A stretch of 29,643 nucleotides of DNA from Methanobacteriota archaeon (GCA_030606525.1 JAUWGG010000001.1:1-29643); one strand, 5' to 3'. Counted from the first letter of the stretch, positions 1 to 29,643 are shown. The notes: generated from the letters alone by a model not told the origin. Made by a program: numbers and translations.

Positions 1-1248
1 CTCATCGATGATGAAGCTGTCTTTAAACTCAAACTCGATTACTACTTGCTCCACAATAGAAGGATCATCAATAGAACTGATGACTCCGTACTTATTCCAT
101 TCGAAAATCACACCTTTTTTGTAAGGAAGGCTAGAGGATACATACCTGATGCGATAAAGGTTGGTTATGACCTACATATTATGGGGGTGGGTGCTGAAAG
201 TAATGTCACTGCCAGCATTTCAAAAAATGGTGCTCTATATACAAGCCAATATATTGGGAATACGGCGCATTATGATGTTCTTCGCTTTCTTAATCTGAGC
301 GTGGATCATTTAATTAAACTTCTAGGCATCAAAAGAATTGATGGTGTTGGGGTCGATCTACATCCTCAATATCCCACAAGGCGTATTGGAATCGATATAT
401 CAAAAAAATTCGACGCTCCATTCTTCGAGGTACAGCATCACTGGGCGCATGCTGTTTCACTCATGATCGATAATGATGTGGACGAGGATATAATCGCGCT
501 CACATTGGACGGAACTGGTTACGGGACAGATAGCAACATTTGGGGCGGTGAGGTTTTGCGCTCCTCTTACCGTTCATTCAAGAGGGAAGCTTCTTTAGAA
601 TACATACCTTTGCTTGGAGGGGATAAAGCGGTTTTGGATCCAAAGCGAGTTGTCTTTGCCATATATCAAAAACTTAACAAGATTATTCCTTACTATGATG
701 ACCGAACCACAGAAATATTTACGAAAATGATAAACAAAAGCGTGGTTTCAAGCAGCATGGGTCGGATTTTAGATGCTCTTTCATGCTATCTGAATATTGG
801 AATTGAAAGAACATATGACGGTGAACCTGCGATGAAGTTGGAGCGGTATTTGTTGAATGGAAAAGACGAATACGAATTTAAAACAGAGATAGTGGATGCA
901 GATCGAAAGATCGTTCACACATTGCCCCTCTTTGATCAGCTGTATGATTATGTGAGCTATGAAAATGTACCGCATCTATCAGAAAGGGAAAAAGCTGATC
1001 TTGCATATTCGTTCGTTAGATCTTTGATTGAAAAGTTGGTAACCGTAGGAATAGATTGCGCTGAGCGGAACGATATAGGATTCATAGGGTTGAGCGGAGG
1101 GGTTTCTTACAACATTCCGATAACAAGAATGGTGAAAGAGATCGTAGAGGATTCTAATTTAAAACTTCTCCTCCATAAAAGAGTGCCCAATGGTGATGGC
1201 GGCATATCAATAGGACAAAATGCGATCGCTGCACATTTGATCGATTAG
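1..1248 (+). CDS. hypF: Carbamoyltransferase HypF, C-terminal part (5'-truncated by the window edge)
   Basis: Frame 1 is open from base 1 (LIDDEAVFKLKLDYYLLHNRRIINRTDDS). Motifs DLHPQY, QHHWAH, LDGTGYG and PNGDGGISIGQ match HypF. The ORF-track TTG at 46 is internal. Confidence 0.95.
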   Translation, partial: LIDDEAVFKLKLDYYLLHNRRIINRTDDSVLIPFENHTFFVRKARGYIPDAIKVGYDLHIMGVGAESNVTASISKNGALYTSQYIGNTAHYDVLRFLNLSVDHLIKLLGIKRIDGVGVDLHPQYPTRRIGIDISKKFDAPFFEVQHHWAHAVSLMIDNDVDEDIIALTLDGTGYGTDSNIWGGEVLRSSYRSFKREASLEYIPLLGGDKAVLDPKRVVFAIYQKLNKIIPYYDDRTTEIFTKMINKSVVSSSMGRILDALSCYLNIGIERTYDGEPAMKLERYLLNGKDEYEFKTEIVDADRKIVHTLPLFDQLYDYVSYENVPHLSEREKADLAYSFVRSLIEKLVTVGIDCAERNDIGFIGLSGGVSYNIPITRMVKEIVEDSNLKLLLHKRVPNGDGGISIGQNAIAAHLID

Positions 1249-2305: not shown

Positions 2306-2791
2306 TCAACCCCTTAAATCTTTAACAATTTCTCTGAATATCCTTGTCAGCCTTTCAACTGCCTTCATCACTTCTTTTGAAACGCAGCTGTCAAATGATA
2401 AGTTATACGGCTGTATGCCTATAATGATGATGCTGCAACCAATGTTGGATCTAAGATAATCGCATAAGAAATTTAAAGGTTGTGCATGGGTTGAAAATGT
2501 TGCACCTTTTATTTTGCTTATATCTATTATTCTTATACAGCCGGGCTTTTCTCCCATGCTTGCCGCATCAATTAGGATAACATGGGACGGCCTTATTTTT
2601 TTTATTAGGCCTACGAAGTTCTCTGGCATCAAACCAGTGATAAAAACATGCATTTTAGGTGATAAATTCTTAAGTTCTTTGGCTGCTAAAAGGCCTGCGC
2701 TATCATCCCCTTTGAGTTCGTTACCTATGCCCAGAACGACTATGCTTCTCGCACCCTTCAATTCTTCTTTCAATTTACTCTTAACATCCAT
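2306..2791 (-). CDS. hycI: Hydrogenase maturation endopeptidase, HycI-type (A31)
   Basis: Motifs VLGIGNELKGDDSAG, GLMPENF, VILIDAA and STHAQPL. It lies directly downstream of the hydrogenase genes. Confidence 0.9.
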   Translation of the reverse strand: MDVKSKLKEELKGARSIVVLGIGNELKGDDSAGLLAAKELKNLSPKMHVFITGLMPENFVGLIKKIRPSHVILIDAASMGEKPGCIRIIDISKIKGATFSTHAQPLNFLCDYLRSNIGCSIIIIGIQPYNLSFDSCVSKEVMKAVERLTRIFREIVKDLRG

Positions 2792-2804
2792 TATAAAATA
2801 CCTG

Positions 2805-3161
2805 TTACTCTACAATTAGTGAGCTCTTATCAAAGGTAGAGAACTCGAACTTCTTTGTCAAAGATATGGCGTCCTTTGGACAAACCTCTGCGCACTGCCC
2901 GCAGAATAAACACATGCCCAGATCGAACACTGGCCTGGGCTTCTTATCTTCCTCAAATTTTTTCATTGTACAGGCTCCAGAGGGACAGTCCCTGGCACAT
3001 AACCCGCACCTTATGCACTTATCATCATAATACTCGATCTTACCTCTAAAATTTTCAGGTATTTGAGGCCTCTCAAGAGGATACAGCACGGTTGCGGGTT
3101 TCTTAATAAGATGCCGCCAGATCTCAGACAGCATAGCACCTGGATATTTCACTAAAACCAC
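2805..3161 (-). CDS. 2x[4Fe-4S] subunit (NuoI/MbhN-like)
   Basis: Two CxxCxxCxxxCP motifs (CIRCGLCARDCP, CLFCGQCAEVCP) and the N-terminal T(V)LYP..FRG motif. The start may be GTG 3152, which overlaps the upstream TAG. Confidence 0.92.
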   Translation of the reverse strand: MVLVKYPGAMLSEIWRHLIKKPATVLYPLERPQIPENFRGKIEYYDDKCIRCGLCARDCPSGACTMKKFEEDKKPRPVFDLGMCLFCGQCAEVCPKDAISLTKKFEFSTFDKSSLIVE

Positions 3162-4129
3162 CCCATATATTTAACCCCAGTTATCAACAGTAATTGAATA
3201 ATGGAAAGAGGGGCAAGCCATTTAAAGCAAAAGGTGACCATTTGGTCTATACGGAGACGCGCAAATAAGGCTCTGATGGATGCTAAAAGAAACACTATGA
3301 ATAGGGTTTTAACCAAGAAAGCGGCAAATCCTATTCCGAACTGCGCTAAAGGAGAAAGACCTGCTACTGAGATGAATGCATCAAAACCACCGAGGAATAA
3401 AGCTGAGATCAATGCTGCACCCACAACCATCTCAATATCTATTGCCATTCTAAATAGTGCTAATCTCCTGCCCACGTACTCGACAAGCAGCCCACCAACT
3501 ATTTCCGTTTCCGCGTCAGGTATATCAAAGGGTATCCTCTCCAATTTCCCCTGCAATGCTATAACAGCCACTATAAAACCCAGAGGCATCATAAGGATCA
3601 ACCAAAAATTGCTGGATTGGAAGTTCACTATATCGATGATGCTCCAACTGTCAGCAATGATAGCTGGACCTAACAGCACCAAGAAAAAGGGTACCTCATA
3701 TGCAAAAAGCTGTGTAATAGCCCTCATAGCCCCTACTTGGCTGAACGGGTTTGAAGAGTGCCAACCTGCTAAGAAAAGGGCTAGTGTAGGTATGCTCAGC
3801 AAATACAATACAACTATCAGATCTCCTTGAAATGAAAAAAAAGACTGATTGAACCATATTGGAATGTATAAGAAGGCAGTAATAACAGCTGCGAAGGCGA
3901 AGAGGGGTATGGCTGAAACCATCTTTCGATCAGCTTTTTTAGGAACAAGATCCTCTTTCGACAATAATTTGATTATATCCGCAAAAGGCTGAAGGATGGG
4001 TGGTCCCACACGGTGTTGGAAGCGCGCATATAATTTTCTGTCCACATATTCAATGAATAGCGCGTAAGCAATCAAAAAAAGGAAGCCTGGAAATACAAGC
4101 AGATATAACACTTCCAACAGAATGCTCAT
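3152..4129 (-). CDS. Membrane anchor subunit (NuoH/MbhM-like)
   Basis: Motifs DRKLYARFQHRVGP, QPFADIIKLLSKE and ERIPFDIPDAETEIVGG. About 8 hydrophobic segments. Confidence 0.93.
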   Translation of the reverse strand: MSILLEVLYLLVFPGFLFLIAYALFIEYVDRKLYARFQHRVGPPILQPFADIIKLLSKEDLVPKKADRKMVSAIPLFAFAAVITAFLYIPIWFNQSFFSFQGDLIVVLYLLSIPTLALFLAGWHSSNPFSQVGAMRAITQLFAYEVPFFLVLLGPAIIADSWSIIDIVNFQSSNFWLILMMPLGFIVAVIALQGKLERIPFDIPDAETEIVGGLLVEYVGRRLALFRMAIDIEMVVGAALISALFLGGFDAFISVAGLSPLAQFGIGFAAFLVKTLFIVFLLASIRALFARLRIDQMVTFCFKWLAPLSIIQLLLITGVKYMGWF

Positions 4130-5298
4130 CTTTTCACCTCATACCACTTTATCCCATACCTTCTCAGCGCCTCCCAATTCATGCTTCTTTCATTATTCTT
4201 TTTATCGACCAGGATAACGCGATCCATACACGCTATGCAGGGATCCATCGCTGCAAATACGATTGGGATGTCAGCGATATATCCTCCTTTCAACATCTCT
4301 ATAGTTGAAGGGATGTTTGCAAGCGTAGGTGTTCTGATCTTAACTCTCTCAGGTTTTTCTGTGCCGTTACTTTTAATGTAATAAAGGAGCTCCCCTCTTG
4401 GTGCTTCAGTATAACTGAGGATTTCATTTTCTGGAATCTTTCGACGTGCTTTCTTTCTTATTTCTCCTGCTGGCAAATTATTAACAGCATATTTTATGAT
4501 CTTGTAAGCCTCCAATAATTCTTTCACCCTAACGACTGTTCTTCCCATCACATCACAAAGATCAGAAGTGATGGCTTCAAAGGGTATCTCGTCATAAGCT
4601 GCGTAAGGATCGTCCTTCCGAATGTCCATTCTTAAACCTGAGCCGCGGGCAGTCGGTCCAACTGCACAGAGCTTCTTAGCCACTTCCTTCTTTAGAATGC
4701 CCACACCTTCCACCCTTTTAAGGAATGTTGGTTCTGTCGTAGCTATTTTTACATAATATTTTGTCCTTTCCTCTAAAGCATCCATTCCTTTCAGCAACTT
4801 TTTTTTCTGTTCATCGTTTATATCCCTTCTCGTACCCCCCACGGTGTTCATTGCATAGTTCACCCTATTACCAGAAATAAGTTCAAGGAGATCCATAACG
4901 ATCTCACGATCTCTCCATGTATACATGAATAATGTGTCAAAACCTACCTCGTGGGCTGCGACCCCCAACCATAGAAGATGACTGTGGATCCTTTCCAGCT
5001 CCAAAAATATAGTACGTATGTAAAGACCTCTTCTTGGGATCTCGAGCTCTAAAAGTTCCTCTGCTCCTTGAACAAGTGTTGAAGAATGAACATGACTGCA
5101 AATCCCACATACCCTTTCAGCCAGATATATGTTTTGAATGTAACTCCTTGCTTCCATAGCCTTTTCGATTCCCCTGTGATTATACCCGATGCGCAAAATA
5201 GGTTCAACAATGACCTCCCCTTCAACCTTTAAAGTAATATTTATAGGCTCTTTAAGAGCGGGATGCTGTGGTCCTATTGGAATAGTTATCTCAGCCAT
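4126..5298 (-). CDS. Group 4 [NiFe]-hydrogenase large (catalytic) subunit (NuoD/MbhL/HycE-like)
   Basis: Motifs GPQHP, HRGIEK, L1 ERVCGICSH, EAPRGE and L2 DPCIACMDR, followed by a 30-aa extension. All four metal-ligating Cys are present. Confidence 0.95.
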   Translation of the reverse strand: MAEITIPIGPQHPALKEPINITLKVEGEVIVEPILRIGYNHRGIEKAMEARSYIQNIYLAERVCGICSHVHSSTLVQGAEELLELEIPRRGLYIRTIFLELERIHSHLLWLGVAAHEVGFDTLFMYTWRDREIVMDLLELISGNRVNYAMNTVGGTRRDINDEQKKKLLKGMDALEERTKYYVKIATTEPTFLKRVEGVGILKKEVAKKLCAVGPTARGSGLRMDIRKDDPYAAYDEIPFEAITSDLCDVMGRTVVRVKELLEAYKIIKYAVNNLPAGEIRKKARRKIPENEILSYTEAPRGELLYYIKSNGTEKPERVKIRTPTLANIPSTIEMLKGGYIADIPIVFAAMDPCIACMDRVILVDKKNNERSMNWEALRRYGIKWYEVKR

Positions 5299-5299
5299 A

Positions 5300-5773
5300 T
5301 CATTCCTCCTTTATCTCTCCTCCTTCAACCCAATCTACTTTCCAATCCTTTCTTAAAGGATAGATGCCATCAGGCCAATCATCAGGGAGTATCAATCTCT
5401 TTGGGTCTGGATGATCCTTCACCACCACACCCATCATGTCTTGAATCTCCAGTTCATACAATACGGCTCCAGGCAGTATATCTGTTACAGTATCAACATC
5501 TGGTGCATTTTTTGGCGTATGTATCCTCAAACTAATGCACACACCATCTTTTAACAGATGATACAGCAGTTCAATATTTTCATTTACATCTACCGCTGTT
5601 ATCGTCGATATATGGGTTATGCCATATTTATCGCGAAGGTGGAGCAGCACATCTTTTAACTTTTCCTTTTTGACATCAATGAACACTCTGCGTGCGCGAG
5701 AAATCTTAATGTTTGAGACGTATTCCTTAAAGGTTTTAAGTAAATCTTCCTTAATCTCTTTTTCTACTTCCAT
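5300..5773 (-). CDS. NuoC/MbhK-like subunit
   Basis: Motifs ISTITAVD, LYELEIQDMMG, HPDPKRLILPDDW and YPLRKD. Confidence 0.9.
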   Translation of the reverse strand: MEVEKEIKEDLLKTFKEYVSNIKISRARRVFIDVKKEKLKDVLLHLRDKYGITHISTITAVDVNENIELLYHLLKDGVCISLRIHTPKNAPDVDTVTDILPGAVLYELEIQDMMGVVVKDHPDPKRLILPDDWPDGIYPLRKDWKVDWVEGGEIKEE

Positions 5774-6272
5774 GATCTGTCAACCCTTTAACTTCTATAT
5801 CCTTACCATATCCTTTTCTTTCCAATTCTTCAACTAACTTTGCTATCTTTGGATCCAATGAACTCAATAACTTCAGTACGCCAAATATTATTGCATCTGG
5901 TCTCGGTGGGCAACCAGGGACATATACGTTTACTGGCATTACCGTATCGATGCCGCCAAGCACATTGTAACACCCGCGAAATACACCGCCTGAGCATGCG
6001 CATGACCCGACTGCCAATACAAATTTCGGTTCCGGTGTTTGGTCGTAGATCCTTCTTGCCCTCGTCCATATTTGTCTGGTCATTGCTCCTGTAGCTACCA
6101 ATACATCTGCATGCCTAGGGGTTCCTTTAATTAAAATTCCAAACCGCTCTAGATCGAATCGTGGAGTTAAAGATGCCACGACCTCGATATCACAACCGTT
6201 GCATCCACCAGTATTTAGATGACATATCCACGGTGATTTTACTCGCGACCAATTTATTAATTTATCAAGCAT
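5751..6272 (-). CDS. Hydrogenase small subunit (NuoB/MbhJ-like, one [4Fe-4S])
   Basis: Motifs GGCNGCDIE (CxxC, hydrogenase type rather than the tandem CC of complex I), PRHAD, GSCA and VPGCPPRP. ATG 6272 follows GAGGTGA. Confidence 0.94.
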   Translation of the reverse strand: MLDKLINWSRVKSPWICHLNTGGCNGCDIEVVASLTPRFDLERFGILIKGTPRHADVLVATGAMTRQIWTRARRIYDQTPEPKFVLAVGSCACSGGVFRGCYNVLGGIDTVMPVNVYVPGCPPRPDAIIFGVLKLLSSLDPKIAKLVEELERKGYGKDIEVKGLTDHGSRKRD

Positions 6273-6282
6273 GTTCTTCACC

Positions 6283-6597
6283 TCATTTCCTCAACAACAT
6301 TAGTATTGACACCAAACCAACAAGCAAATAAATAACCCCCAAAATAGCTATGTTACCGCTGGGCATAGTAGCGATCATCAGCACTGCCACATGTAGAATG
6401 GTAAAAAAGAAAGCGATGTGGAAGAAATCATAGGTCTGCTGCACTTTCCCTCCAGGAATGTCCTCACCGCATGCATACGGTTTTAGTTTATCCCCCTCAT
6501 CCTTCAACTTCAAGCCCATAGAGCCGCCCAGCCTATAGATCAAATAGCCTATGACCAGGAAAACGATGAATGCTATTGGTGGGAGCAGCAGCCACAT
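6283..6597 (-). CDS. NuoA/ND3-like three-helix membrane subunit
   Basis: Three hydrophobic segments with the loop motif KPYACGE (PYECG-like) after helix 1. ATG 6597 follows GGAGGTG. Confidence 0.82.
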   Translation of the reverse strand: MWLLLPPIAFIVFLVIGYLIYRLGGSMGLKLKDEGDKLKPYACGEDIPGGKVQQTYDFFHIAFFFTILHVAVLMIATMPSGNIAILGVIYLLVGLVSILMLLRK

Positions 6598-6598
6598 C

Positions 6599-8104
6599 TT
6601 AAGCACCTCCCATCAGTCCCAACATAAATTCAACAGCTGGATCTACAATCCTCAATCCGAACATCGGTGCTATACCTAAAATAATGGTAATGGCTGCCAA
6701 AATGCATATTGCCATTAACATTGATAATGGGACTTCCTTTGCTTTCTTTGCAAGCCCAGATGTTTCCTTAGCAAAGAAGAACGTGTTGATCGCAGGTAAA
6801 TAATAACCGAGGGATAGAATGCTGTTAAATACTGCCATACCTGTGAAGAATAGCCCCCAACCACCAATATCCAGTCCCACCTTGTAGATAAGCCATTTGC
6901 TCATGAACCCGCTTAATGGCGGTACCCCTGCCAGCGATAAACCTGCGATGGCGAATGCTAACGCTGTTAAGGGCATGGTCCTCCCTATGCCTTTCATCTC
7001 CCTAATATCTCTCGTGCCAACACGATATATGATAGCACCAGCGCAAAGGAAAGCCAACCCCTTCATAAATGCATGAGTGAGGATATGGAATAAACCACCT
7101 TCAAGCCCTGCTCTTGCAATTTCACCGAACTCAAATGCGAGCCCGATACCAACAAGGATATAACCCATTTGCGTCACGCTTGAATATGCGAGCATTCTTT
7201 TTAAATCTGTCTGCACCAAAGCCATTATATTTCCAACGGTCATGGTTATCAAACCAAATATCGCAAGCGTGAACCCAAAATTTTGCGTTAACGATGTGCC
7301 TGAGAATATCAATAGGATTCGTATCATGGCAAAGAATCCGCTTTGTATTACTATACCTGAAAGCATTGCACTGATCCCACTTGGTGCTGCTGCATGGGCA
7401 TCAGGCAGCCAAGTATGTAAAGGTACGATTGCAGCTTTCACACCAAAACCAACGATGAGGAAGCAAACAGCTGCAAGTAATGGTGTTTGATTTGATATAT
7501 TTGAGATCTCGCCAGCGAGCAGTGCAAAATCTAAGGTTCCGGTTTGTGCAAATATGATAGATATCGCAAACAATGCGATGCAGGAGCCAGTCGCACTCAT
7601 AACTATATATTTGAATCCTGCTTCAATCGGTTCCCAATTCTCTCTTCTAAAGGCTACTAAGACATATGAGGATATGCACATTAATTCAAAGAACACATAC
7701 AAATTAAAAATATCGCCAGAGAGACCGATGCCAACGATGCCTGTTACAAGAAGGATCAGCAATGAATAATACTTATCCAATCTGGTGTCCTCTTTCATGT
7801 AATTTATAGAATAAATTGATACGATAAGCCCCATGCTAATGGCTATTATCCCTAAAAATATGGCCAAAGGATCAGCTCTGAGCGTGATTCTAAAGGCTGT
7901 TGCACCAGCTAGACAATATGTTGATTCGGTACCAGCCCACACATCTACGGCGATGACGAGGGTAGACCAGAGCGCAACGGTGAAGAAAAGAGCAGCTATT
8001 ATCCCGACAAGATATTCTTTTTTCACTCTGCGTAAAGCTTCACTGCAGGGATAAATGACAAATGCTCCTACGATTAGGATTATTAAAGGTATTATAGGCG
8101 TCAT
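6599..8104 (-). CDS. Antiporter-like proton-translocating subunit (MrpD/MbhH/NuoN-like)
   Basis: Motifs FFELMCISSY, GFGVKAAIVPLHTWLPDAH, LAYSSVTQMGY, THAFMKGLAFL and GFMSKW. Confidence 0.92.
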   Translation of the reverse strand: MTPIIPLIILIVGAFVIYPCSEALRRVKKEYLVGIIAALFFTVALWSTLVIAVDVWAGTESTYCLAGATAFRITLRADPLAIFLGIIAISMGLIVSIYSINYMKEDTRLDKYYSLLILLVTGIVGIGLSGDIFNLYVFFELMCISSYVLVAFRRENWEPIEAGFKYIVMSATGSCIALFAISIIFAQTGTLDFALLAGEISNISNQTPLLAAVCFLIVGFGVKAAIVPLHTWLPDAHAAAPSGISAMLSGIVIQSGFFAMIRILLIFSGTSLTQNFGFTLAIFGLITMTVGNIMALVQTDLKRMLAYSSVTQMGYILVGIGLAFEFGEIARAGLEGGLFHILTHAFMKGLAFLCAGAIIYRVGTRDIREMKGIGRTMPLTALAFAIAGLSLAGVPPLSGFMSKWLIYKVGLDIGGWGLFFTGMAVFNSILSLGYYLPAINTFFFAKETSGLAKKAKEVPLSMLMAICILAAITIILGIAPMFGLRIVDPAVEFMLGLMGGA

Positions 8105-9603
8105 ATTGGCAACCCCAAGAGTTCAGCTGATATTTTAACTAAAGGCATAAATAAATTCGGATAAATTCCAACGAGTATGGTTGCAACTGAAAGAATGAGC
8201 ATCGGGAACATTAAGCAAAATGATGGGTCCTTGACCTCTTTCCTTTCACCGCTTGATTTAGACGGACCAAAGAATACTCTCTTTACAAGCCATAAAGCAT
8301 ACCCCGTGGTGAACACAGCAGCGCAGACAGATAGTATCGATAAGATCTTAATCAAGGTAGTTGCATTTTCAATACCAAAACCACTTCCTATCATCATCCA
8401 TTCACTCTGAAAACCAGCGAATGGCGGTGCTCCAGCTATAGAAAACGCCCCGATAATGCATGCTAACGCAGTTAAAGGCATTTTCTTAGCTAAACCTCCC
8501 AACTGGTCTATGTTTCTCGTGCCAGCTGCAAGGGCTACAGCACCGATGACCATGAAGAGCAGGGCTTTAGCCATCCCATGATTGATGACATGGAATATCG
8601 AGCCGCCAGCACCCAAGCCTACGCATGAACATATCCCAAAGAACATGTATCCCATCTGACTGACGCTCGAATAACCCAATATCCTTTTTATGTCCTTTTC
8701 AACCAAGGCCATTATCGCTCCATAGAATTGGGTGATCACAGCCAATATCAATGTAAAGGGAATGAGGGATTGGCCGACGCCATCAGGCAAAACATTGAAT
8801 AGAAAACGCATCAGTCCATAAGCACCAGTACTCAGCATTATCGCAGCAAGCATGATCGTTATAGGTAATTGGGCTACAGTATGAGCATCTGGCAACCATG
8901 AATGGAACGGGAATATTGCCATTTTTATCCCGAATCCAATCACGAAGAATATAGCTATTGTCTTTAATATTGAGAAAGTTGCGTTTGAACCATAAGTGAG
9001 ACCGTGCATGCTCGTTGATCCGGTCAAGCTGTATACCCATAGAATTCCGACGAGGATGAGTATTGCGCCCACGTGGGTGAAAAAGAAATATTTTAAACCT
9101 ATGCGGTATGATTCTACAGTTTCCCCCCAATATGTGACAAGTGCCCAAGAGGCAACCAATACCATTTCCCAAAACAGATAGAACAGGATCATATCTGAAG
9201 CGAGGACAACTCCGATCATCCCCCCCATGAAGATGAGTAAGCCTGAATAATAACTGTTGATATCATGAAGCGCTTTAACATATTTAAGGGAATAAAGCAC
9301 TGATAAGGTGGAGAGAACAGAGATCGCAATCAGTAAAATCAGACTTAAGCTATCCACCATAAATCCGACAGTAAAAGGAAGATAACGACTGCTTTCAATT
9401 AAAGTAAATGCATAACTTTCATTAGATTGAACGTATGCAATGAGCGGCAGTAATAGTGGTACAGTGAGAATAGATGCGATGAACGCTCCCAGACCCAAAT
9501 CCCTTTCTGTTCTTCTACCTCCAATGAATATCAAAAGAGCTGAAATGAATGGAATGCAAATAAGAAGAATTATAATTGATGCCATGAAGGACAGACTAAA
9601 CAC
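8101..9603 (-). CDS. Antiporter-like subunit (NuoM-like, TM12 Glu)
   Basis: Motifs FWEMVL, GFGIKMAIFPFHSWLPDAH, YSSVSQMGY, NHGMAKALLF and GFQSEW. The start is GTG 9603 or ATG 9585. Confidence 0.9.
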   Translation of the reverse strand: MFSLSFMASIIILLICIPFISALLIFIGGRRTERDLGLGAFIASILTVPLLLPLIAYVQSNESYAFTLIESSRYLPFTVGFMVDSLSLILLIAISVLSTLSVLYSLKYVKALHDINSYYSGLLIFMGGMIGVVLASDMILFYLFWEMVLVASWALVTYWGETVESYRIGLKYFFFTHVGAILILVGILWVYSLTGSTSMHGLTYGSNATFSILKTIAIFFVIGFGIKMAIFPFHSWLPDAHTVAQLPITIMLAAIMLSTGAYGLMRFLFNVLPDGVGQSLIPFTLILAVITQFYGAIMALVEKDIKRILGYSSVSQMGYMFFGICSCVGLGAGGSIFHVINHGMAKALLFMVIGAVALAAGTRNIDQLGGLAKKMPLTALACIIGAFSIAGAPPFAGFQSEWMMIGSGFGIENATTLIKILSILSVCAAVFTTGYALWLVKRVFFGPSKSSGERKEVKDPSFCLMFPMLILSVATILVGIYPNLFMPLVKISAELLGLPI

Positions 9604-11482
9604 CTCCCATTAAAAAGTCGATTATTGATGGCAAAAAGATCAAGATCGTTACTAAGATCGCTCCAATGACTATTCCCACCATATTGTAATTTAGATCCCC
9701 TGTCTGTGCATGTCTGAATTTTTGACCTAGCTTTATAGTACCACCCGCAACGGTCTCATAGCAGAACCTGTCTGTTGCGCCGATATCGAATTTGTGATAG
9801 ACCGTTCTACCTGTCGCCAACAACCCGCCGATCAACCATAGGTAAAATCTATCGAAATAGAAACCATTGGATGCAGCACTATACAAAGAGCTTGTTATCC
9901 CACTTTTTGATAAAGCGATCAATTTATCTCTATTGTGTACATAATATCTGAAGATCAGGAAGCCAATGACCATGATGGTGATGGATGCACCCACAGAAAT
10001 GAAATATTCCAATCCTTCAACAACTTCGACGTGCATGTTTGAATTCGTGAAAAAGTGAAGTAATGTGTGCTCAAAGAAGCCCAATGTTAAAGCGCCAATA
10101 CCAAGAATGAATAAGGGGACGAGCATTATTATCGAAGGGTCATGTGCTTCTACTTCATCATCCCTCTTACGATAAAACACGAGATATATCATTCTTAGAG
10201 TATAAAGAAGGGTCAGCAGTGCAGTGAAAGCAGCGACTATGAAGAAGAGATAATGAGATGTTTTAAGCGCAGATGCAAAAATAAGGTCTTTGCTCCAAAA
10301 TCCACCGAACGGAAAAATGCCAGCTAGGGCAAAAGCACCAAACATCGTCATCCAAAAAGTATAGCGCATCTTGTTCTTCAATCCCCCCATGTCCATCATG
10401 CTTCTTGATCCGACAGAGTGAATAATGGCTCCTGCACATAAGAACAACAATGCCTTAAATGTACCATGCACTAGAAGATGAAAAGAAGATGAGAATAATC
10501 CATACGTTACCCCGAAGGAAGCAGCGAGCATGAGGTATGCGAGTTGGCTTATCGTGGAATAAGCGAGCAATCGTTTCAGATCTATCTCCACCAAAGCCTG
10601 TATCGCGGTTATGAGCATCGTTACACCGCCTATTATGCCAATAGCTAACAACCAATACTGCACATCAATGAAAATAGGCATTACCCTGAGGATCAGATAT
10701 ATGCCTGCATTGACCATTGTAGCTGCATGGATTAGTGCGCTGATCGGGGAGGGGGCTTCCATAGCATCTGGCAGCCAAACATGTAATGGAATCTGTGCAG
10801 ATTTCCCGATAGCTCCTAAAATAAAACATGCGCCTGGAAGTGCAAAGCTGCTTACCGATATACTCCCAGTTTCAACAGCTAATATTATCTCTTGAATGTT
10901 GAAACTCTTTGTCTGCCAATAAAGTACAATGATACCAATCAAAAGGAAAGCATCCCCGACTCTTGTTGTAACAAACGCTTTCATCCCAGCCTTAGCTGCC
11001 TTGGGGTCATCATAATAATAACCTATGAGCGCATAAGAGCATAATCCTACAATCTCCCAAAAGAAATATAGAACCAATAAGTTATCAGTCAGCACAAGGC
11101 ATACCATCGCTCCTATGAATAGGAGGACCAAAGAATAATACCTTGATAAATTGTATTTTTTTTCGTCCGTTTCCATATATTTAACGGAATATATCACCAC
11201 AAGCAATCCTATGATAGTAGCAATTAAAGCTAAAAGTAAACCAAGAGCGTCGATGTAAAAGGTAAGATTGAGACCTATGGCATCATTCCATAAATATGTG
11301 TATCCTGGTGTATAACCATTCCATACATCAGGGATTATACTTACGACGACGACCGCACTCAATGCGGCACATGCAACTGCAAACCATCCTTTAGCTCTTG
11401 GAAAAAAATGACCAACCAATGGAGTCAATGCAGCGCCGATGAATGGAATGGCAATGAGCAACAGATATGTGTAAGGTAACAT
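9596..11482 (-). CDS. Antiporter-like subunit with lateral helix (NuoL/MrpA-like)
   Basis: Motifs FWEIVG, GKSAQIPLHVWLPDAMEAPSPISALIHAATMV, AYSTISQL, HGTFKALLFL and GFWSKD. The C-terminal FYFDRFY...HAQTGDLNYN segment plus a final TM resembles the NuoL transverse helix. Confidence 0.93.
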   Translation of the reverse strand: MLPYTYLLLIAIPFIGAALTPLVGHFFPRAKGWFAVACAALSAVVVVSIIPDVWNGYTPGYTYLWNDAIGLNLTFYIDALGLLLALIATIIGLLVVIYSVKYMETDEKKYNLSRYYSLVLLFIGAMVCLVLTDNLLVLYFFWEIVGLCSYALIGYYYDDPKAAKAGMKAFVTTRVGDAFLLIGIIVLYWQTKSFNIQEIILAVETGSISVSSFALPGACFILGAIGKSAQIPLHVWLPDAMEAPSPISALIHAATMVNAGIYLILRVMPIFIDVQYWLLAIGIIGGVTMLITAIQALVEIDLKRLLAYSTISQLAYLMLAASFGVTYGLFSSSFHLLVHGTFKALLFLCAGAIIHSVGSRSMMDMGGLKNKMRYTFWMTMFGAFALAGIFPFGGFWSKDLIFASALKTSHYLFFIVAAFTALLTLLYTLRMIYLVFYRKRDDEVEAHDPSIIMLVPLFILGIGALTLGFFEHTLLHFFTNSNMHVEVVEGLEYFISVGASITIMVIGFLIFRYYVHNRDKLIALSKSGITSSLYSAASNGFYFDRFYLWLIGGLLATGRTVYHKFDIGATDRFCYETVAGGTIKLGQKFRHAQTGDLNYNMVGIVIGAILVTILIFLPSIIDFLMGGV

Positions 11483-11486
11483 CTTC

Positions 11487-11783
11487 TTAACCTCTCAATC
11501 TTTTTAATTTCTTTAAATTGATAACTCCATGATGAGTATAGGCGTTCACAATAAGTGATAAAGCAATAGCCACAATAACCACGTCGATAACGATAACGAC
11601 GATAACTAGTGCCTGTGCTATCCCACCATACCCTGTAGCAATGAAGTTCAAGGTTACTCCTTTAGATAAGATCTCTATCCCTATGATCATCTTTATCATG
11701 TTTCTTTTCGATATTAAACAATATAAACCAATGAGAATGAGGATCAATACAAGCAACGTATATGCATTCAGATATTCGGTCAA
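11487..11783 (-). CDS. NuoK/MrpC/MbhG-like subunit
   Basis: Motif KRNMIKMIIGIEIL, three TMs and a C-terminal LKRLRG. The TTG start at 11783 follows GGAGGCGA and overlaps the upstream TGA. The ORF-track extension to 11996 is spurious. Confidence 0.88.
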   Translation of the reverse strand: MTEYLNAYTLLVLILILIGLYCLISKRNMIKMIIGIEILSKGVTLNFIATGYGGIAQALVIVVIVIDVVIVAIALSLIVNAYTHHGVINLKKLKRLRG

Positions 11784-12013
11784 GTTTTCGCCTCCGGTCG
11801 CAGCGCTAGGACCCCCAAAGCACCAGCGAAGATTATTATAGCTTGGATGAACACATCCACAGCTCTTTCCCGCCATAAAATATCGCCAATTGTCCCTTCC
11901 TCCCCGCCTTCTTTTATTTCCCCCTGCGTGAGAATGTTGGCGAAGACGATGGTTAGTATTAAAAGAAGTGTGATACCTATGCCGATAACTATCCAAAACC
12001 TACTCTTCTTCAT
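11780..12013 (-). CDS. Small membrane subunit (MbhE/MnhB-N-like; NuoJ C-terminal equivalent)
   Basis: Two TMs with GDILWRERAVDVFIQAIIIFAGALGV. ATG 12013 follows a perfect GGAGGTGA. Confidence 0.72.
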   Translation of the reverse strand: MKKSRFWIVIGIGITLLLILTIVFANILTQGEIKEGGEEGTIGDILWRERAVDVFIQAIIIFAGALGVLALRPEAKT

Positions 12014-12257
12014 GTTCCTCACCTCCTTTAGTGAGATTGATCGTGGAGGCAAATAGAACTGTGATCAAGCCTGCACATACACTCAGCTCAAACATCGCTG
12101 CATATGGAGCGTCGAGCTGATAAAAAATTATTGCAAGAATTACGCTCGCTACGGCAAGAGAGATCGCTGACTTGAGGAGGTCTTTGAGCTCCACTGCTAG
12201 AATGGAGAAGATGATAAGGAGTGGGAAGAGCAATAACAATGATGCATCAATCGACAA
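12000..12257 (-). CDS. DUF4040/MbhD-like subunit (NuoJ N-terminal equivalent)
   Basis: Sequence KDLLKSAISLAVASVILAIIFYQLDAPYAAMFELSVCAGL. The probable TTG start at 12257 follows GAGGAGG; the alternative is ATG 12320. Confidence 0.8.
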   Translation of the reverse strand: MSIDASLLLLFPLLIIFSILAVELKDLLKSAISLAVASVILAIIFYQLDAPYAAMFELSVCAGLITVLFASTINLTKGGEEHEEE

Positions 12258-12383
12258 TCCATTTTCCTCCTCATTCAGTCTTTTTTCACTCCTCAGTTCA
12301 AAACTGAGGGATTCGGACATAACAATTTAATATTTAATAGTTTACGAAATATTAAGTGTCATGGCACATTATAACAAGGCATA

Positions 12384-13931: not shown

Positions 13932-15314
13932 ATGGAGAATTTCTTTGAGCCTAATGCTGTGGCTATACTCGGTGCATCGTCCAAACCAGGTAAGATAGGA
14001 TATGAAGTTCTAAAGAATCTGATCAGGTCTGGTTTCAAAGGAAGAATTTATCCCATAAATTTAACGGAAGAGAATATCCTGGGACTTGAGGTCTTTAAGC
14101 GCATAGGAGATGTTCGTGGTGATGTGGAATTGGCAGTTTTTGTTCTGCCATCTAATTTAGCCCCACAAGTAATGGAGGAATGTGGAAGAAAGGGCGTGAA
14201 ACGGGTTGTAGTGATCTCGGGTGGGTTTAAAGAATTGAATGATAAAGGAGCAGCGCTTGAAAAAAGAATGGTTGATATCGCTTCCAAATACGGTATCAGG
14301 ATAATCGGACCCAATTGCATTGGTATCTTCGATGGTAAGAATCGCTTGGATACCTTTTTCCAACCCTATGAGAACATGGTTCGCCCAAAATACGGAAATA
14401 TAGCAATTCTTACCCAATCGGGGACCTACGGAGCTTCTCTATTAGAATGGTTTTACGAGGAGCAGATGGGGGTAAGTAAATTCGTGAGCTATGGGAACAA
14501 ATGTGATGTGAATGAAGTTGATATGCTCAAATACTTAAAAAATGATGATAATACAAAGGTCATAGTGATCTATGTTGAAGGGTTTGCGAATGGAAAGTCA
14601 TTCTTAAAGATCGCGAAGAATGTTTCCACCAAAAAACCGATAGTTTTGCTAAAATCCGGAAGAAGTAAAGAAGGCGCTAGAGCTGCCAAGAGCCATACTG
14701 GCGCTCTATCGGGCGATGATGGGGTATTCACTGGTGCAATGGCTCAAGCAGGCATCATAGTTGTGGATAATTTGGAAGAGATGCTTGATGCAGCAAAGAT
14801 TCTTTCCCTTCAGCCCTTACCCAAAGGTGGAAAGATCGGGATGGTAACAAATGGTGCAGGGCCCTGCGTTGTGGCGGTTGATAACATGGCTGTTTGTGAC
14901 AATCTAGAGGTCGCAAAATTGAAGGAAGAGAGCATAGAATGTTTAAGAAAGAACTTACCTTCCTATTTTGTATTCGATAATCCGATCGATGTTACAGGCA
15001 GCGGTACAGCTGAGCACTACGACTTTGCCCTTAAAGTACTTGCACAAGCGCCTAATGTAGATATCCTTCTGCCTTTTTTCGTATTTCAAGATGCGCCATT
15101 AGCCAGCACGATAGATCACCTTCACAAGGCCATGAACGATATAAAGAAATATAGAAAGACATTGATCGGCAGCGCTGCTGGTGGACCTTTTACTAAAGAG
15201 CAGGGGAAAAGATTTCAAGAAAACAATATACCATTTATACCAACAGCTAACAGGGTGATAGGCGCATTAGATAAAATCGTTAGATATAGTAAATGGTTAA
15301 GGAGCAGGAGCTAA
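13932..15314 (+). CDS. acdA: Acetate/acyl-CoA ligase (ADP-forming), alpha subunit
   Basis: CoA-binding N-terminus ([13 protein letters not shown]), GPNCIG, TQSG, SYGNKCD, KSGRS...SHTGAL (phospho-His) and NPIDVTG. No beta subunit in the window. Confidence 0.9.
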
Positions 15315-16917: not shown

Positions 16918-18153
16918 CTATATCAGAGTTGTTTGGAGCTTTGGTCTGCAGTTCTTGATTTGCATGAGGATTTCATCTCTTTCAAGCACCTTTTTTGTCT
17001 CGAAAGGCGATACGCTTACCTGTATTTCTTTCGTGCGACCTCCTCTACCGAATGACTTAACTCGTGCATTGATTATGCCGAGCATGTCCAATTCAGATAT
17101 TAGATCTGTGATCCTTCGTTGCGTTAGGATGGTTATACTAGCGCTTCTACACAATTGTTTGTAGGTGGTGTAAACATCACCTGTTGTAAGCTTGTGGTTT
17201 CCAACCTCTTCATTAAGAATTATGCCTAAAAGAACTAACTTGGATTGTGTCGGGAGGGTGCGAATAGTCTCACACACACAATCTAGTTCGATCCTATTAT
17301 TTGCCTTGTATACGTGGTGCTCAGTTATTTTCCTCTCTTGATTTCTCTCAGCTATCTCTGCAGCAATTCTTAATAAATCTAGGGCTCTTCTAGCATCACC
17401 ATGCTCTTGAGCCGCGAGAGCAGCGCATAAAGAGATAGTCGATGGGTCGACGATGCCACTGTCAAAAGCTAAACTTACTCTTTGGGTTAAAATGTCCTTC
17501 AACTGATCTGCATTATAGGGTGGGAACACCATTTTTTCCTCTCCGAGACGACTTCTCACCCTGGGGTCTAAGAAGTCTGTGAACTTCAAATCGTTGGATA
17601 TGCCTATCATACTCACCTTAGCGTTAATCAGATCGTCATTTATCTTAGATAAATGGTAAAGTACATCATCCCCGCTTTTATAGACTAGTTTGTCCACTTC
17701 ATCCAAAATAATCACTACTACTCTTTTTTTCTCATCAATCTTTTCCCTAAGAGTGTTGTATACTCTCTCTGTAGGCCAACCTGTAAAAGGAATGCGTTCG
17801 TCGAATTTGTCTATGAATCGGTTTCCTATATTCTGTAATACACCATATTGTGTGTCTACGATCTCGCAATTCATGTATATGTAGCTAATATTGCTGAGCT
17901 TGGATCTTGTCTTTTCAATCTCTAATCCTAGATAGTTAACAGTAGCAGTCTTCCCCGTACCGGTTTTTCCGAACAACAGAACGTTCGACGGTCTTTCACC
18001 CCTTAATGCAGTCGATAAGATAGATGCTAATTGCTTTATCTCTTCGTCCCTATGAGGCAGCCTTTCAGGTATGTAGGAAGGACGCAAGATATCTCTATCC
18101 TTTTTGAATATTGACTTCGTCTGAATATACGCATCAAATATGTTGCTTTCCAT
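16918..18153 (-). CDS. cdc6: Orc1/Cdc6 replication initiator
   Basis: PERLPHRDEE, Walker A GKTGTGKT, Walker B IILDEVD, GDARRALDLL and a winged-helix C-terminus (LDMLGII..GRGGRT). ATG 18153 follows GGGGGAGA. Confidence 0.96.
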   Translation of the reverse strand: MESNIFDAYIQTKSIFKKDRDILRPSYIPERLPHRDEEIKQLASILSTALRGERPSNVLLFGKTGTGKTATVNYLGLEIEKTRSKLSNISYIYMNCEIVDTQYGVLQNIGNRFIDKFDERIPFTGWPTERVYNTLREKIDEKKRVVVIILDEVDKLVYKSGDDVLYHLSKINDDLINAKVSMIGISNDLKFTDFLDPRVRSRLGEEKMVFPPYNADQLKDILTQRVSLAFDSGIVDPSTISLCAALAAQEHGDARRALDLLRIAAEIAERNQERKITEHHVYKANNRIELDCVCETIRTLPTQSKLVLLGIILNEEVGNHKLTTGDVYTTYKQLCRSASITILTQRRITDLISELDMLGIINARVKSFGRGGRTKEIQVSVSPFETKKVLERDEILMQIKNCRPKLQTTLI

Positions 18154-18184
18154 AGTTCTCCCCCAAGAACGTTGAAAAGGGTAG

Positions 18185-18207
18185 ACCCCTCTATTTCCAC
18201 TGGAAAC
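18185..18207 (-). promoter_or_regulatory. Origin recognition box (ORB)
   Basis: The minus strand reads GTTTCCAGTGGAAATAGAGGGGT, matching the archaeal ORB consensus (TTCCAGTGGAAA core plus G-string). It lies 32 nt upstream of the cdc6 start. Confidence 0.88.
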
Positions 18208-18240
18208 TTGCATACAATAGAAGGTTGAAAAATAGATGAG

Positions 18241-18390
18241 ATAATAGATACAAATACTTTTCTTTTATTTGTTTTTTTTCATAATATCTCTAACTCAACT
18301 TTTTTAGAGTTTAGCGTTAGCCAGTAATTATTCGGTATTTATCATTAAGAAATTCAAAACTTTTAATTTCTTTTGGAAATATTTTTATTT
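18241..18390. other. AT-rich tract, candidate DNA unwinding element of oriC
   Basis: Long A/T runs (e.g. TTTTCTTTTATTTGTTTTTTTTCATAATAT) in the noncoding region next to the ORB. Confidence 0.6.
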
Positions 18391-19963: not shown

Positions 19964-20992
19964 ATGATAGAATTATTAGAAGAGTTGATAAGAACACCAG
20001 GTATATCTGGTTACGAAGACCCAATAAGGGATCGAATCAAGAAAGAGATAGAGAAATATGTTGAGACCAGGATAGACAATATTGGCAATCTGATTGCAAC
20101 TATCGGTGATGGAAAACACATCGCTCTGATAGCTCATATGGATGAGATCGGATTGGTGGTCTCGAACATCGATGATAAGGGAACGATAAGGATAAGCAAA
20201 CTCGGAGGGATTGACGATAGGATACTTGTGAGCAGAGCTGTAGAGATTCATACGAAGAAAGGGATAGTTGAAGGTGTTATCGGTCTCAAGCCCCCCCATC
20301 TGATGATCGATAGAGAGGAGGCTAAAAAAACAAAACGCTCTGAAACACTTCATTTAGATGTAGGGACAAGAACTCGAGAGGAAACGAAGGGGTTGGGGGT
20401 TGAACTTTTAAATCCCATTACATTCAAAAAACATTTCTCGATATTGAACAAGAATATGATTTGCACGAGAGGCATTGATAATAGAGCCGGGTGTTTGGCA
20501 CTCATAGAGATGCTGAAGCTCGTGCACAATAAAAAACTAGGAGTAAAATTATCGTTCGTATGGTCAGTTCAAGAAGAGATCGGGCTAAGGGGTGCGAAGG
20601 TCGTGGCAAATACGATGAGACCTGATTATGTCCTTGCGGTCGATACATACACAACAACAGATGCACCCGACATGCCCAGCCATCTGGAACCAGTTAAATT
20701 AGGTGAAGGACCAGTGCTTAGGCTGATCGATAGCAGGGCGATAGCTTCACCAATTCTTCGTGAAATGATAACGAAAGTAGCGAAAGAATACGATATTCCA
20801 TTGCAGTTGGGGATTACAGGTGGGACTACAGACGGTGCTGCGGTACAGGAGTGCGGCGCACTAACTATGCCTTTAGGTATACCTCTGCGTTATACCCACT
20901 CCTTAGTTGAGTGCTGCCACAAAAACGATTTGGAAAATCTTATACAATTGTTGACAAGGATTATCGAGGAAATTGAAAAGCGAGAAAGATAA
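19964..20992 (+). CDS. M42 family (TET-like) aminopeptidase
   Basis: Motifs AHMDEIG, IDNRAG, QEEIGLRGA, GGTTDG and YTHSLVE. Confidence 0.92.
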   Translation: MIELLEELIRTPGISGYEDPIRDRIKKEIEKYVETRIDNIGNLIATIGDGKHIALIAHMDEIGLVVSNIDDKGTIRISKLGGIDDRILVSRAVEIHTKKGIVEGVIGLKPPHLMIDREEAKKTKRSETLHLDVGTRTREETKGLGVELLNPITFKKHFSILNKNMICTRGIDNRAGCLALIEMLKLVHNKKLGVKLSFVWSVQEEIGLRGAKVVANTMRPDYVLAVDTYTTTDAPDMPSHLEPVKLGEGPVLRLIDSRAIASPILREMITKVAKEYDIPLQLGITGGTTDGAAVQECGALTMPLGIPLRYTHSLVECCHKNDLENLIQLLTRIIEEIEKRER

Positions 20993-21003
20993 GTAGTGAG
21001 AAG

Positions 21004-22074
21004 ATGCATGATTTTATAGATAAGGTATTAGCAGATCTGATAACGATTGACAGCTCGCCCCATGCCGATAAAACAAGAATAATAGAATACGCAGCTAAAA
21101 TTACAAAGTCCTTTGGTATGGATAACGAAATTTTTGGGAGGGATGCCCCGTCCTTATTAGCACACTTTGGTGAAGGAGGTGTGCATTTCAGCGGTCATTT
21201 GGATACAGTTCCGCGCGGTGATAATTGGAAATATGAACAAGGCGAGAAGATTAATGGAAGGGTATATGGACGCGGTGCATTGGATATGAAGGGAGGCTGC
21301 GTTTCAATGCTGGAGACTGCAAAGAGGCTTGTTGCTGCCAAAATAAATTTTTCACTCTCATTCACAACCGATGAGGAAACGACAATGAACGGTGCTGAAT
21401 TGATAGCGAAAACCGATGCTATAAAGAACGCTCAAGCTATAGTAATATGTGAACCAACAGATTTTGATGTCATCACCTTTGAAAAAGGTGTATACCAATT
21501 CAAATTGATCACGCGTGGAAAAATAGCGCATGCGAGCATGCTTGAATTGGGAGAGAATGCAATAATGAAGATGAATAGATTGATCACCACTTTAGAAGAT
21601 ATGACAATCCCACCAAAAACGCCATTAAATGAAATAAGTTTAAATGTCTCAAAGATTGCTGGTGGTGAAAAGATCAATGTGGTACCTGCAAAATGCGTTT
21701 TAGAGGTGGACGTTCGTTTTCCGCCAGCATACAGCTTTAAGGATGTAAAAGCGCTGATTGAAAAAAAATTAAGTACTGCGAATCTAACCTTTGAATGGGA
21801 GACGATGCATAAGCTGCCGCCAGTAAAGGTAGACCCAGATCAAAAAGTGATAAAGAAGATGGTGCGTATTTCTAAAGGGAAGATCAGAGGAGCGCTGTAT
21901 GCGACAGAGATGGTGCGCTTCTTCCCAATTAATAAAAAAGTAATGGTCTGCGGACCAGGTGACCCAAAGAGAGCGCATACGATAGATGAGTATATTGAAT
22001 TAAAGGACCTATACAAAGCTGCTGATATATATGAGAAATATGCAAGGGAAATAATGAAAATTCCAAATCCGTGA
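21004..22074 (+). CDS. M20A metallopeptidase/deacylase (ArgE/DapE family)
   Basis: Motifs SGHLDTVP, GRGALDMKGG, TDEET, CEPT, EKG and AHTIDE. Confidence 0.88.
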   Translation: MHDFIDKVLADLITIDSSPHADKTRIIEYAAKITKSFGMDNEIFGRDAPSLLAHFGEGGVHFSGHLDTVPRGDNWKYEQGEKINGRVYGRGALDMKGGCVSMLETAKRLVAAKINFSLSFTTDEETTMNGAELIAKTDAIKNAQAIVICEPTDFDVITFEKGVYQFKLITRGKIAHASMLELGENAIMKMNRLITTLEDMTIPPKTPLNEISLNVSKIAGGEKINVVPAKCVLEVDVRFPPAYSFKDVKALIEKKLSTANLTFEWETMHKLPPVKVDPDQKVIKKMVRISKGKIRGALYATEMVRFFPINKKVMVCGPGDPKRAHTIDEYIELKDLYKAADIYEKYAREIMKIPNP

Positions 22075-29585: not shown

Positions 29586-29643
29586 GGATTCTGATAATAA
29601 ATAAAGAGCATAAAAGCTTTTGTTTGAATCAATCGAACCCACT

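Follow-up and report, generated by a model that had tools for sequence, protein, structure and literature searches.

Can an archaeal [NiFe] hydrogenase carry the whole membrane arm of respiratory complex I, and to what use would it put it? The question is raised by an operon on a 29,643-nucleotide stretch of archaeal DNA (GCA_030606525.1 JAUWGG010000001.1:1-29643), referred to here as the window. The operon runs on the minus strand from position 12320 to position 1245 and comprises fourteen genes with overlapping or abutting ends, in the order J1-J2-K-L-M-N-A-B-C-D-H-I-hycI-hypE, the order that an initial annotation of this DNA had given. Assignment of domains with Pfam and NCBIfam models at their cut-offs left no unassigned open reading frame (ORF) inside the operon. 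Twelve of the genes, predicted to be cotranscribed, are assigned to equivalents of the eleven core subunits of complex I, with J in two pieces. We consider it very probable that the locus encodes an Hfo-type (complex I-like, HydDB 4g-like) energy-converting [NiFe] hydrogenase of an uncultured cold-seep Thermoplasmata archaeon, which would couple ferredoxin-driven H2 evolution to the export of ions.

The catalytic module is predicted to be that of a [NiFe] hydrogenase

The large subunit D (positions 4126 to 5298; 390 amino acids [aa]; PF00346 and PF00374) contains the motifs RVCGICSHVH (L1) and DPCIACMDR (L2), followed by a 30-residue C-terminal tail. It matches the large-subunit patterns for L1 (C[GS][ILV]C..H) and L2 ([DE][PL]C..C..[DE][RL]), and all four Ni-Fe cysteines and the L1 histidine are kept. 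The small subunit B (5751 to 6281; NuoB fold; PF01058, 2e-30) carries the ligands GGCNGC...GSCAC...GCPP (CxxC...C...CP) for a single proximal [4Fe-4S] cluster; the GGCNGC segment aligns with E. coli HycG and HyfI, whereas NuoB has CC there. The motifs and tail of D and the ligands of B together predict a real [NiFe] hydrogenase, as the initial annotation had proposed. Both cysteine motifs were present in 85 of 87 D sequences from 80 GTDB loci and references, with the other two retaining the C-terminal motif, and neither was present in E. coli NuoCD. The best solved relatives of D, identified with phmmer among Protein Data Bank (PDB) chains, were MbhL (283 bits), HycE (270 bits), and Nqo4 (225 bits).

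The rest of the module is also encoded. Subunit C (5300 to 5773; PF00329, 4.9e-30) is a NuoC-like 30-kDa protein separate from D, and subunit I (2805 to 3161; 118 aa; Fer4 families) is a ferredoxin-like protein of the NuoI/MbhN type with two [4Fe-4S] clusters and likely the electron entry point. The C-terminal tail of D has the arrangement processed by HycI-type proteases, and the predicted maturation endopeptidase encoded by the operon's own hycI (2306 to 2791; PF01750, 2.3e-16) should remove it; hycI has the same position in most related loci. The last gene, hypE (1245 to 2309; AIRS and AIRS_C domains), encodes a maturation protein and overlaps hycI by 4 nucleotides. On the left it converges with the 3' part of hypF (1 to 1248, plus strand; HypF_C_2, 4.2e-57, and HypF_C), which extends beyond the window, and on the right the operon is flanked by a divergent glnA. 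Two further maturation genes, hypC and hypD, are on contig C40 of the same genome.

The membrane arm is a mosaic of complex I and Mbh types

All seven membrane subunits of complex I (H, A, J, K, L, M, and N) are encoded. Subunit H (3152 to 4129; 325 aa; PF00146, 5.7e-84) is a NuoH/MbhM-like membrane anchor that retains the acidic residues of the E-channel and the loop between transmembrane helices (TM) 5 and 6, equivalent to E157, D213, E220, and E228 of E. coli NuoH. Subunit A (6283 to 6606; 107 aa), a NuoA/ND3 homolog, scored 21.2 bits against PF00507, below the cut-off of 23.3. A profile of 32 family members aligned with E. coli NuoA over 98 columns and three TM helices (hhalign, 96.8%; E value, 2.6e-10), in agreement with the separate three-helix NuoA of the initial annotation. 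The family has a conserved K..YACGE loop, the counterpart of PFESG in NuoA.

The J subunit is divided between two genes. J1 (12000 to 12320; PF13244 MbhD, 4e-10; PF00499, 1.2e-08) corresponds to the N-terminal half of NuoJ, with TM1 to TM3, and is MbhD-like; J2 (11780 to 12013; 77 aa) corresponds to the C-terminal half and is MbhE-like, with no Pfam match. Bacterial relatives have a fused J subunit of 165 aa; against its profile, J1 matched positions 5 to 81 (E value, 1.6e-34) and J2 matched positions 91 to 160 (E value, 8.6e-15). Because the two proteins cover both halves of fused J, we interpret them as a split NuoJ. The true start of J1 is likely an in-frame TTG at 12257 behind GGAGG, which gives a protein of 85 aa as in relatives. 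J2 overlaps the end of J1 in another frame and starts with an ATG behind the Shine-Dalgarno-like AGGTGAGG, and K starts with a TTG at 11783. A read-through or fused J2-K protein after the J1 stop (11997 to 11999) was rejected, since J2 lies in the other frame with its own ATG and ribosome-binding-like sequence and K begins at its own TTG; the N-terminal 78 residues of the in-frame 169-aa ORF past this stop are of low complexity and unmatched.

The remaining subunits differ in the models that they match best. K (11487 to 11783; 98 aa; PF00420, 2.5e-18) is NuoK/MrpC/MbhG-like, with PRK08388 as its best NCBIfam model; in an alignment to E. coli NuoK, it retains the TM2 Glu and has an Asp in TM3. 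Three antiporter-like subunits follow. L (9596 to 11482; 628 aa; TIGR01974, 493 bits against a cut-off of 407.5) is of the full NuoL type, M (8101 to 9603; 500 aa; TIGR01972, 330 bits, over the cut-off) is of the NuoM type, and N (6599 to 8104; 501 aa) is nearest to the MrpD/MbhH type, with 391 bits for PRK08376 versus 254 bits for the NuoN model TIGR01770, both below their cut-offs. Judged by these models, the arm is a mosaic in which the split of J resembles that in Mbh, K and N match Mrp/Mbh-type models best, and L and M, the only subunits to pass Nuo models, are of the Nuo type. The complex I-type arm of the initial annotation is therefore complete in its seven subunits, but not uniformly Nuo-like. 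A structure prediction of H, A, J1, and K together, which bore on a complex I-like versus an Mbh-like arrangement, scored 0.01 and is evidence neither way.

L, M, and N retain the TM5 Glu, the TM7 Lys, the TM11 His, and a TM12 Lys or Glu (Glu in M, Lys in N), and L also has the TM8 His. At the position of the central TM8 Lys of NuoM, M has Ser (8830 to 8832), and at that of NuoN, N has Gln (7343 to 7345). Across the family, this position is occupied by Lys, Glu, Gly, Gln, Ser, or Ala. The two-antiporter relatives from Thermoplasmatota described below have Gly or Ala there, together with an M-like TM12 Glu.

The lateral helix of L tracks the number of antiporter-like genes

If L is a full NuoL-type subunit, it should possess the lateral helix (HL) and the anchor helix behind it. 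L aligns to residues 36 to 600 of the 606 residues of Thermus Nqo12, with HL at about 518 to 596 (79 aa; 9697 to 9933) and the anchor helix TM16 at 597 to 625. An AlphaFold model of L, built with 31 relatives (pLDDT, 85.2; pTM, 0.84), superposed in Foldseek on full-length NuoL, ND5, and NdhF chains with TM scores of 0.82 to 0.84 over about 625 columns, and with root mean square deviations of 4.4 to 5.0 Å for two of the NuoL-type chains. Since the superposition extends over full-length chains, both the lateral helix and the sixteenth helix are present, and the initial annotation was correct in giving the first of three antiporter-like subunits a NuoL-type lateral helix.

HL is known to scale in length with the number of subunits that it clamps (PMC8165549). 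We aligned 31 L subunits and, across 30 related operons, measured the segment equivalent to residues 518 to 596 of the window's L. The segment was 46 to 52 residues long in all 17 loci with two adjacent antiporter-like genes, 78 to 80 residues in all 7 loci with three such genes, and 107 to 133 residues in five loci where three or four antiporter-like genes were detected. The window has 79 residues and three genes. The step of about 31 residues corresponds to about 46 Å of helix, which is about the width of one antiporter-like subunit. The HL of the window's L is thus long enough for two further antiporter-like subunits, and the agreement between predicted HL length and gene count supports the view that M is truly part of the complex. 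Nor is the three-antiporter layout an assembly artifact, because independent metagenome contigs span both the N/M and the M/L junctions. Near-identical DNA is present in many cold-seep and marine-sediment metagenomes from several studies.

The complex corresponds in composition to Hfo

Genomes had already yielded a hydrogenase with this set of subunits. In 2021, Loh, Hervé, and Brune reported Hfo, a [NiFe] hydrogenase of 11 subunits that is Fpo-like, belongs to HydDB subgroup 4g, and has no Na+ module MbhABCF; in their view, it links energy-converting hydrogenases to respiratory complexes more closely in evolution than Mbh does (PMC7886697). The window shares with Hfo the same eleven subunit types, the NiFe L1 and L2 motifs, the lack of MbhABCF, and an hycI gene in the cluster. 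In two bathyarchaeal loci with the Hfo order (L050 and L062), identity to the window's proteins is 56% for D and 41 to 46% for L (620 aa), M, and N. The order itself differs: Hfo has A-B-C-D-H-I-J-K-L-M-N, whereas the window has J1-J2-K-L-M-N-A-B-C-D-H-I and a Thermoplasmata host. We treat this as a variant and not as exclusion from the Hfo type, since order varies widely in the clade. On gene content, the locus is a predicted member of the Hfo type (HydDB 4g-6 and related groups).

Related complexes are known from other archaea. A study of Korarchaeia recorded NuoL/M-like genes in group 4g loci (PMC10667645), and an Asgard series of groups 4j to 4q extends from Mbh-like through complex I-like forms (Appler et al., 2024 preprint; bioRxiv 10.1101/2024.07.04.601786). 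In Asgard complexes modeled by Valentin-Alvarado et al. (2024), a full HL helix is accompanied by two further antiporters (PMC11291895). The complexes of Atabeyarchaeia and Freyarchaeia resemble the window in having an L-like subunit with full-length HL plus two more antiporter-like subunits; on the Atabeyarchaeia-1 chromosome (locus L018), D is 61% identical to the window's, the HL segment has 80 aa, and there are three antiporter-like genes. In the Asgard loci, the membrane genes and the catalytic genes form separate, divergent clusters, and genes for Hdr, a group 3 hydrogenase, and ATP synthase belong to the same block (PMC11291895), whereas the window has a single operon flanked by glnA and hypF.

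More distant systems share parts of the design. The Mbh of Pyrococcus furiosus (group 4d; PDB 6CFW) includes the best solved relative of D, a split J (MbhD/MbhE), and K and N of the MbhG/MbhH type, and it is ferredoxin dependent, with a 2x[4Fe-4S] subunit such as the window has in I. However, Mbh has one antiporter-like subunit plus an MrpE/F/G/B-like Na+ module (MbhA-C and F), whereas the window has three and the module was not found, and Mbh is without the NuoL, the NuoM, and the long HL on an L subunit that the window has. Eleven-subunit complex I, Fpo, and NDH-1, which lack the N module, have the same subunit set and membrane arm, and the window's L, M, and A are of the Nuo type; these complexes have lost the Ni-Fe cysteines and the tail, have the CC of NuoB, and reduce quinone or methanophenazine, whereas the window keeps its hydrogenase features. 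E. coli Hyf and Hyc (PDB 7Z0S) are group 4 [NiFe] enzymes with HycI maturation, Hyf has three antiporter-like subunits, and HycE is the second-best solved relative of D. In Hyc and Hyf, C and D are fused, NuoA and NuoJ are absent, and HycB/HyfA provides a link to formate dehydrogenase, whereas in the window C and D are separate and no HycB/HyfA or FdhF gene was annotated in the operon with Pfam or NCBIfam.

The initial annotation had presented the operon as a candidate intermediate between Mbh and complex I. The functional and architectural side of that view was upheld by the tests run, and its implied novelty was not, the identical subunit set having been described as Hfo in 2021 (PMC7886697) and in Asgard versions in 2024.

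Relatives of the operon are widespread

Thousands of database relatives of D share about 60% identity or more, from hosts in Thermoplasmatota, Bathyarchaeia, Asgard archaea, Chloroflexota, Bacillota, Acidobacteriota, Elusimicrobiota, Omnitrophota, and others. A search for synteny, as the initial annotation had suggested, recovered the same gene set in variable order from dozens of GTDB species across many phyla. Some Bathyarchaeia have A-B-C-D-H-I-J-K-L-M-N-hycI. Bacillota, Acidobacteriota, and Elusimicrobiota have three antiporter genes followed by J-K-A-B-C-D-H-I-hycI, with J fused. The nearest Thermoplasmatota relatives have J1-(J2)-K-L-N'-A-B-C-D-H-I-hycI, with only two antiporter-like genes. 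The identity of the window's D to bathyarchaeal D sequences overall is 56 to 59%. Among 200 sampled species of the window's class, about 21 have a D of this kind (51 to 63% identity; tail of 31 to 37 residues), most other homologs are tail-less and NuoD/FpoD-like or Ech-like, and none of the genomes is a member of the window's own family.

In a quick D tree, the window's D fell into no supported clade and outside the bathyarchaeal clade; the backbone was without resolution, and the nearest neighbors were a Dehalococcoidales sequence and a Thermoplasmatota clade. The references in the tree were E. coli HycE, HyfG, and NuoCD. HycE and HyfG formed a long branch of their own that joined close to the second hydrogenase in the window's genome, a placement that is not to be trusted. 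The named 4g reference from Desulfosporosinus orientis was not among the best 120 matches to a Peptococcaceae homolog used as the query.

A cluster with the order B-C-D-I-hycI and no H between D and I was observed at seven loci (L012, at 9063 to 12065, L139, L141, L142, L147, L150, and L151). L012, from Dehalococcoidales, contains the closest D homolog (68%), and the other six are from Thermoplasmata genomes. L012 is the only one of these loci with wide flanks (10 kb on each side), and membrane-arm genes were not found nearby. Such clusters may derive from the same catalytic module, either as a soluble form or as one with another kind of anchor.

The host genome suggests a peptide fermenter

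The window is contig C184 of a metagenome-assembled genome of 1.24 Mb in 251 contigs, 74.7% complete. Its aspartyl-tRNA synthetase is at most 64% identical to those of Thermoplasmata/Thermoplasmatota genomes, and a Cdc6/Orc1 gene confirms an archaeal host. We conclude that the host is an uncultured cold-seep Thermoplasmata archaeon. At 16918 to 18390, the cdc6/orc1 gene (minus strand; 431 aa) borders on intergenic DNA where the window is richest in A+T, probably a replication origin.

The gene for the alpha subunit of an ADP-forming acetyl-CoA synthetase lies beside the operon, and the window also contains three M20/M42 peptidase genes and one for the glycine-cleavage T protein (synthetase, peptidase, and glycine-cleavage genes at 13932 to 15314, 19964 to 22074, and 28356 to 29642). 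Together, these genes fit a peptide-fermenting lifestyle. The neighborhood and the genome at large hold glycine cleavage T and H proteins, several M20/M42 peptidases, and the ADP-forming acetyl-CoA synthetase, and the genome has four genes for POR-type 2-oxoacid:ferredoxin oxidoreductases and an A-type ATP synthase. On the plus strand at 22236 to 23746, in a stretch of lower G+C content (0.35 to 0.38), a gene for an N6/N4 DNA methylase (321 aa) precedes one for a BglII-like endonuclease (182 aa), and the two form a type II restriction-modification pair.

A second hydrogenase cluster is present on contig C121 (L095; 3 to 6849, plus strand), with its upstream part missing. Its genes are, in order, an antiporter-like gene cut by the contig end, B (132 aa), a second antiporter-like gene (628 aa), C, D, H, and I (210 aa). 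Its D protein (398 aa) is 52% identical to the window's D and has RVCGIC, DPCFCCTDR, and a tail, and one of its antiporter-like subunits is without the TM7 Lys. Two more [NiFe] large-subunit genes, on contigs C69 (525 to 1781) and C221 (5464 to 6726), encode proteins of about 495 aa; their match to the Pfam NiFeSe_Hases model covers its whole length, a sign of soluble hydrogenases of a group 3-like kind. With the window and C121, the genome therefore holds at least four hydrogenases.

Predicted function and alternatives

How would the complex serve this host? During peptide fermentation, the four POR-type oxidoreductases would produce reduced ferredoxin, whose electrons would travel by way of I and then B to the Ni-Fe site of D and there reduce protons to H2. 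As in complex I, the redox step would drive conformational and electrostatic coupling through H, A, J, and K into N, M, and L, and the cations exported, most likely H+, would feed the A-type ATP synthase. The host, if a peptide fermenter, would in this way dispose of ferredoxin electrons as H2 while gaining an ion-motive force. The reaction is probably reversible, and the pumping stoichiometry is probably below the 4 ions per 2 electrons of complex I, because the ferredoxin-to-H2 step yields little energy.

Several points weigh against this account. The first is energetic: calculated from standard potentials, electron transfer from ferredoxin (-500 mV) to H2 yields about 17 kJ per 2 electrons at 1 bar H2 and perhaps 45 kJ at seep-like trace H2, which by this calculation covers the cost of one to two or three ions but not of four. 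The explanation may be that some modules do not pump, in line with the missing TM8 lysines, that the stoichiometry is low, or that the enzyme runs in reverse. M and N, lacking the central TM8 Lys, need not both be pumps, judging from their residues. The c subunit of the A-type ATP synthase (74 aa; L134, on contig C153, 1486 to 1710, minus strand) has Gln in helix 1 and PET in helix 2 (Q...PET), as in Na+-binding c rings, with Phe replacing the usual Tyr; with this only partial Na+-type motif, the ATP synthase could use H+ or Na+. The spatial order H-A/J/K-N-M-L is assumed by analogy with complex I. The genome is only about 75% complete. The sole sequencing run labeled RNA-Seq gave flat, low coverage and was flagged as probably DNA. 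Finally, no member of the family is reported to have been purified or assayed (PMC7886697; PMC5037454), nor has any structure been reported.

Alternatively, the same enzyme could run in reverse, taking up H2 and using the membrane potential, with ions flowing in, to drive ferredoxin reduction for biosynthesis or CO2 fixation. In acetogenic Bathyarchaeia, Hfo was proposed by Loh et al. to work in this direction (PMC7886697), the uphill step could draw ample driving force from three antiporter-like modules, cold seeps offer H2, and the genome has further hydrogenases of the group 3 type. However, the neighborhood and the genome point to fermentation of peptides and amino acids, which produces reduced ferredoxin rather than needing it, and we regard net operation in reverse as unlikely, though by no means far-fetched.

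An Mbh-type, Na+-translocating hydrogenase is a much poorer fit. Here, the arm would be joined by an MrpE/F/G/B-like module whose genes lie in the quarter of the genome that is missing. Apart from the incompleteness of the genome, this idea draws on the label "Mrp-linked" that some authors give to group 4g (PMC8542988), on the split J and the Mrp/Mbh-type scores of K and N, and on the Q...PET of the c subunit. However, a search of the available genome, including the operon, gave no match over the cut-off for MrpE, MrpF, or MrpG (PF01899, PF04066, and PF03334), so that the absence of an Mrp module claimed in the initial annotation held within that scope; a weak MnhG match on contig C160 proved to be BacA. 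Related operons are contiguous and leave no space for Mrp genes, the full HL and TM16 of L close the distal end as in complex I, and Hfo-type clusters are reported without MbhABCF (PMC7886697). We therefore judge this arrangement to be very improbable. A hydrogenase-derived complex that no longer handles H2 and uses another electron acceptor, like Mbx/Mbs, Ehr, or Fpo-like complexes, can practically be dismissed: the Ni-Fe site was lost several times in the superfamily and most Thermoplasmata D homologs in the 200-species sample are tail-less like FpoD and NuoD, but here the four cysteines, the L1 histidine, the cleavable tail, the operon's HycI, and hypCDEF are all present.

Implications for the family

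The ferredoxin-driven, H2-evolving hydrogenase that we favor belongs to an enzyme type known from genomes since 2021 and widespread, and the locus does not change what is known of the type. The present analysis adds a cold-seep Thermoplasmata member with JKLMN before ABCDHI, the relation between HL length and antiporter count, M and N subunits without the central TM8 Lys, and the observation that antiporter-like subunits number only two in the nearest relatives from Thermoplasmatota. The class to which the window belongs also holds this two-antiporter sister form and many Fpo-like complexes without the Ni-Fe site.

Moparthi and Hägerhäll (2011) predicted that membrane hydrogenases and complex I share an 11-subunit ancestor with a Ni-Fe site (PMC3144371). 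At that time, hydrogenases with NuoA or NuoJ were not known (PMC3144371), a statement now outdated; the family to which the window belongs is a living form of that predicted ancestor. It also presents a bioenergetic puzzle, in that three pump-like modules are attached to a reaction of very little energy. One tentative solution, which we offer as a long shot, is that the arm is built in modules, its antiporter-like subunits numbering two, three, or four and HL growing by about 31 residues with each one added. The window would be the three-module Thermoplasmata form, in which M and N have lost the TM8 Lys and would be structural or gating modules that tune the ion-to-electron stoichiometry. If M and N do have such a role, the family would show how that stoichiometry is tuned to the very small energy of the ferredoxin-to-H2 step, and it would provide a natural series for testing how many of the modules of complex I pump.

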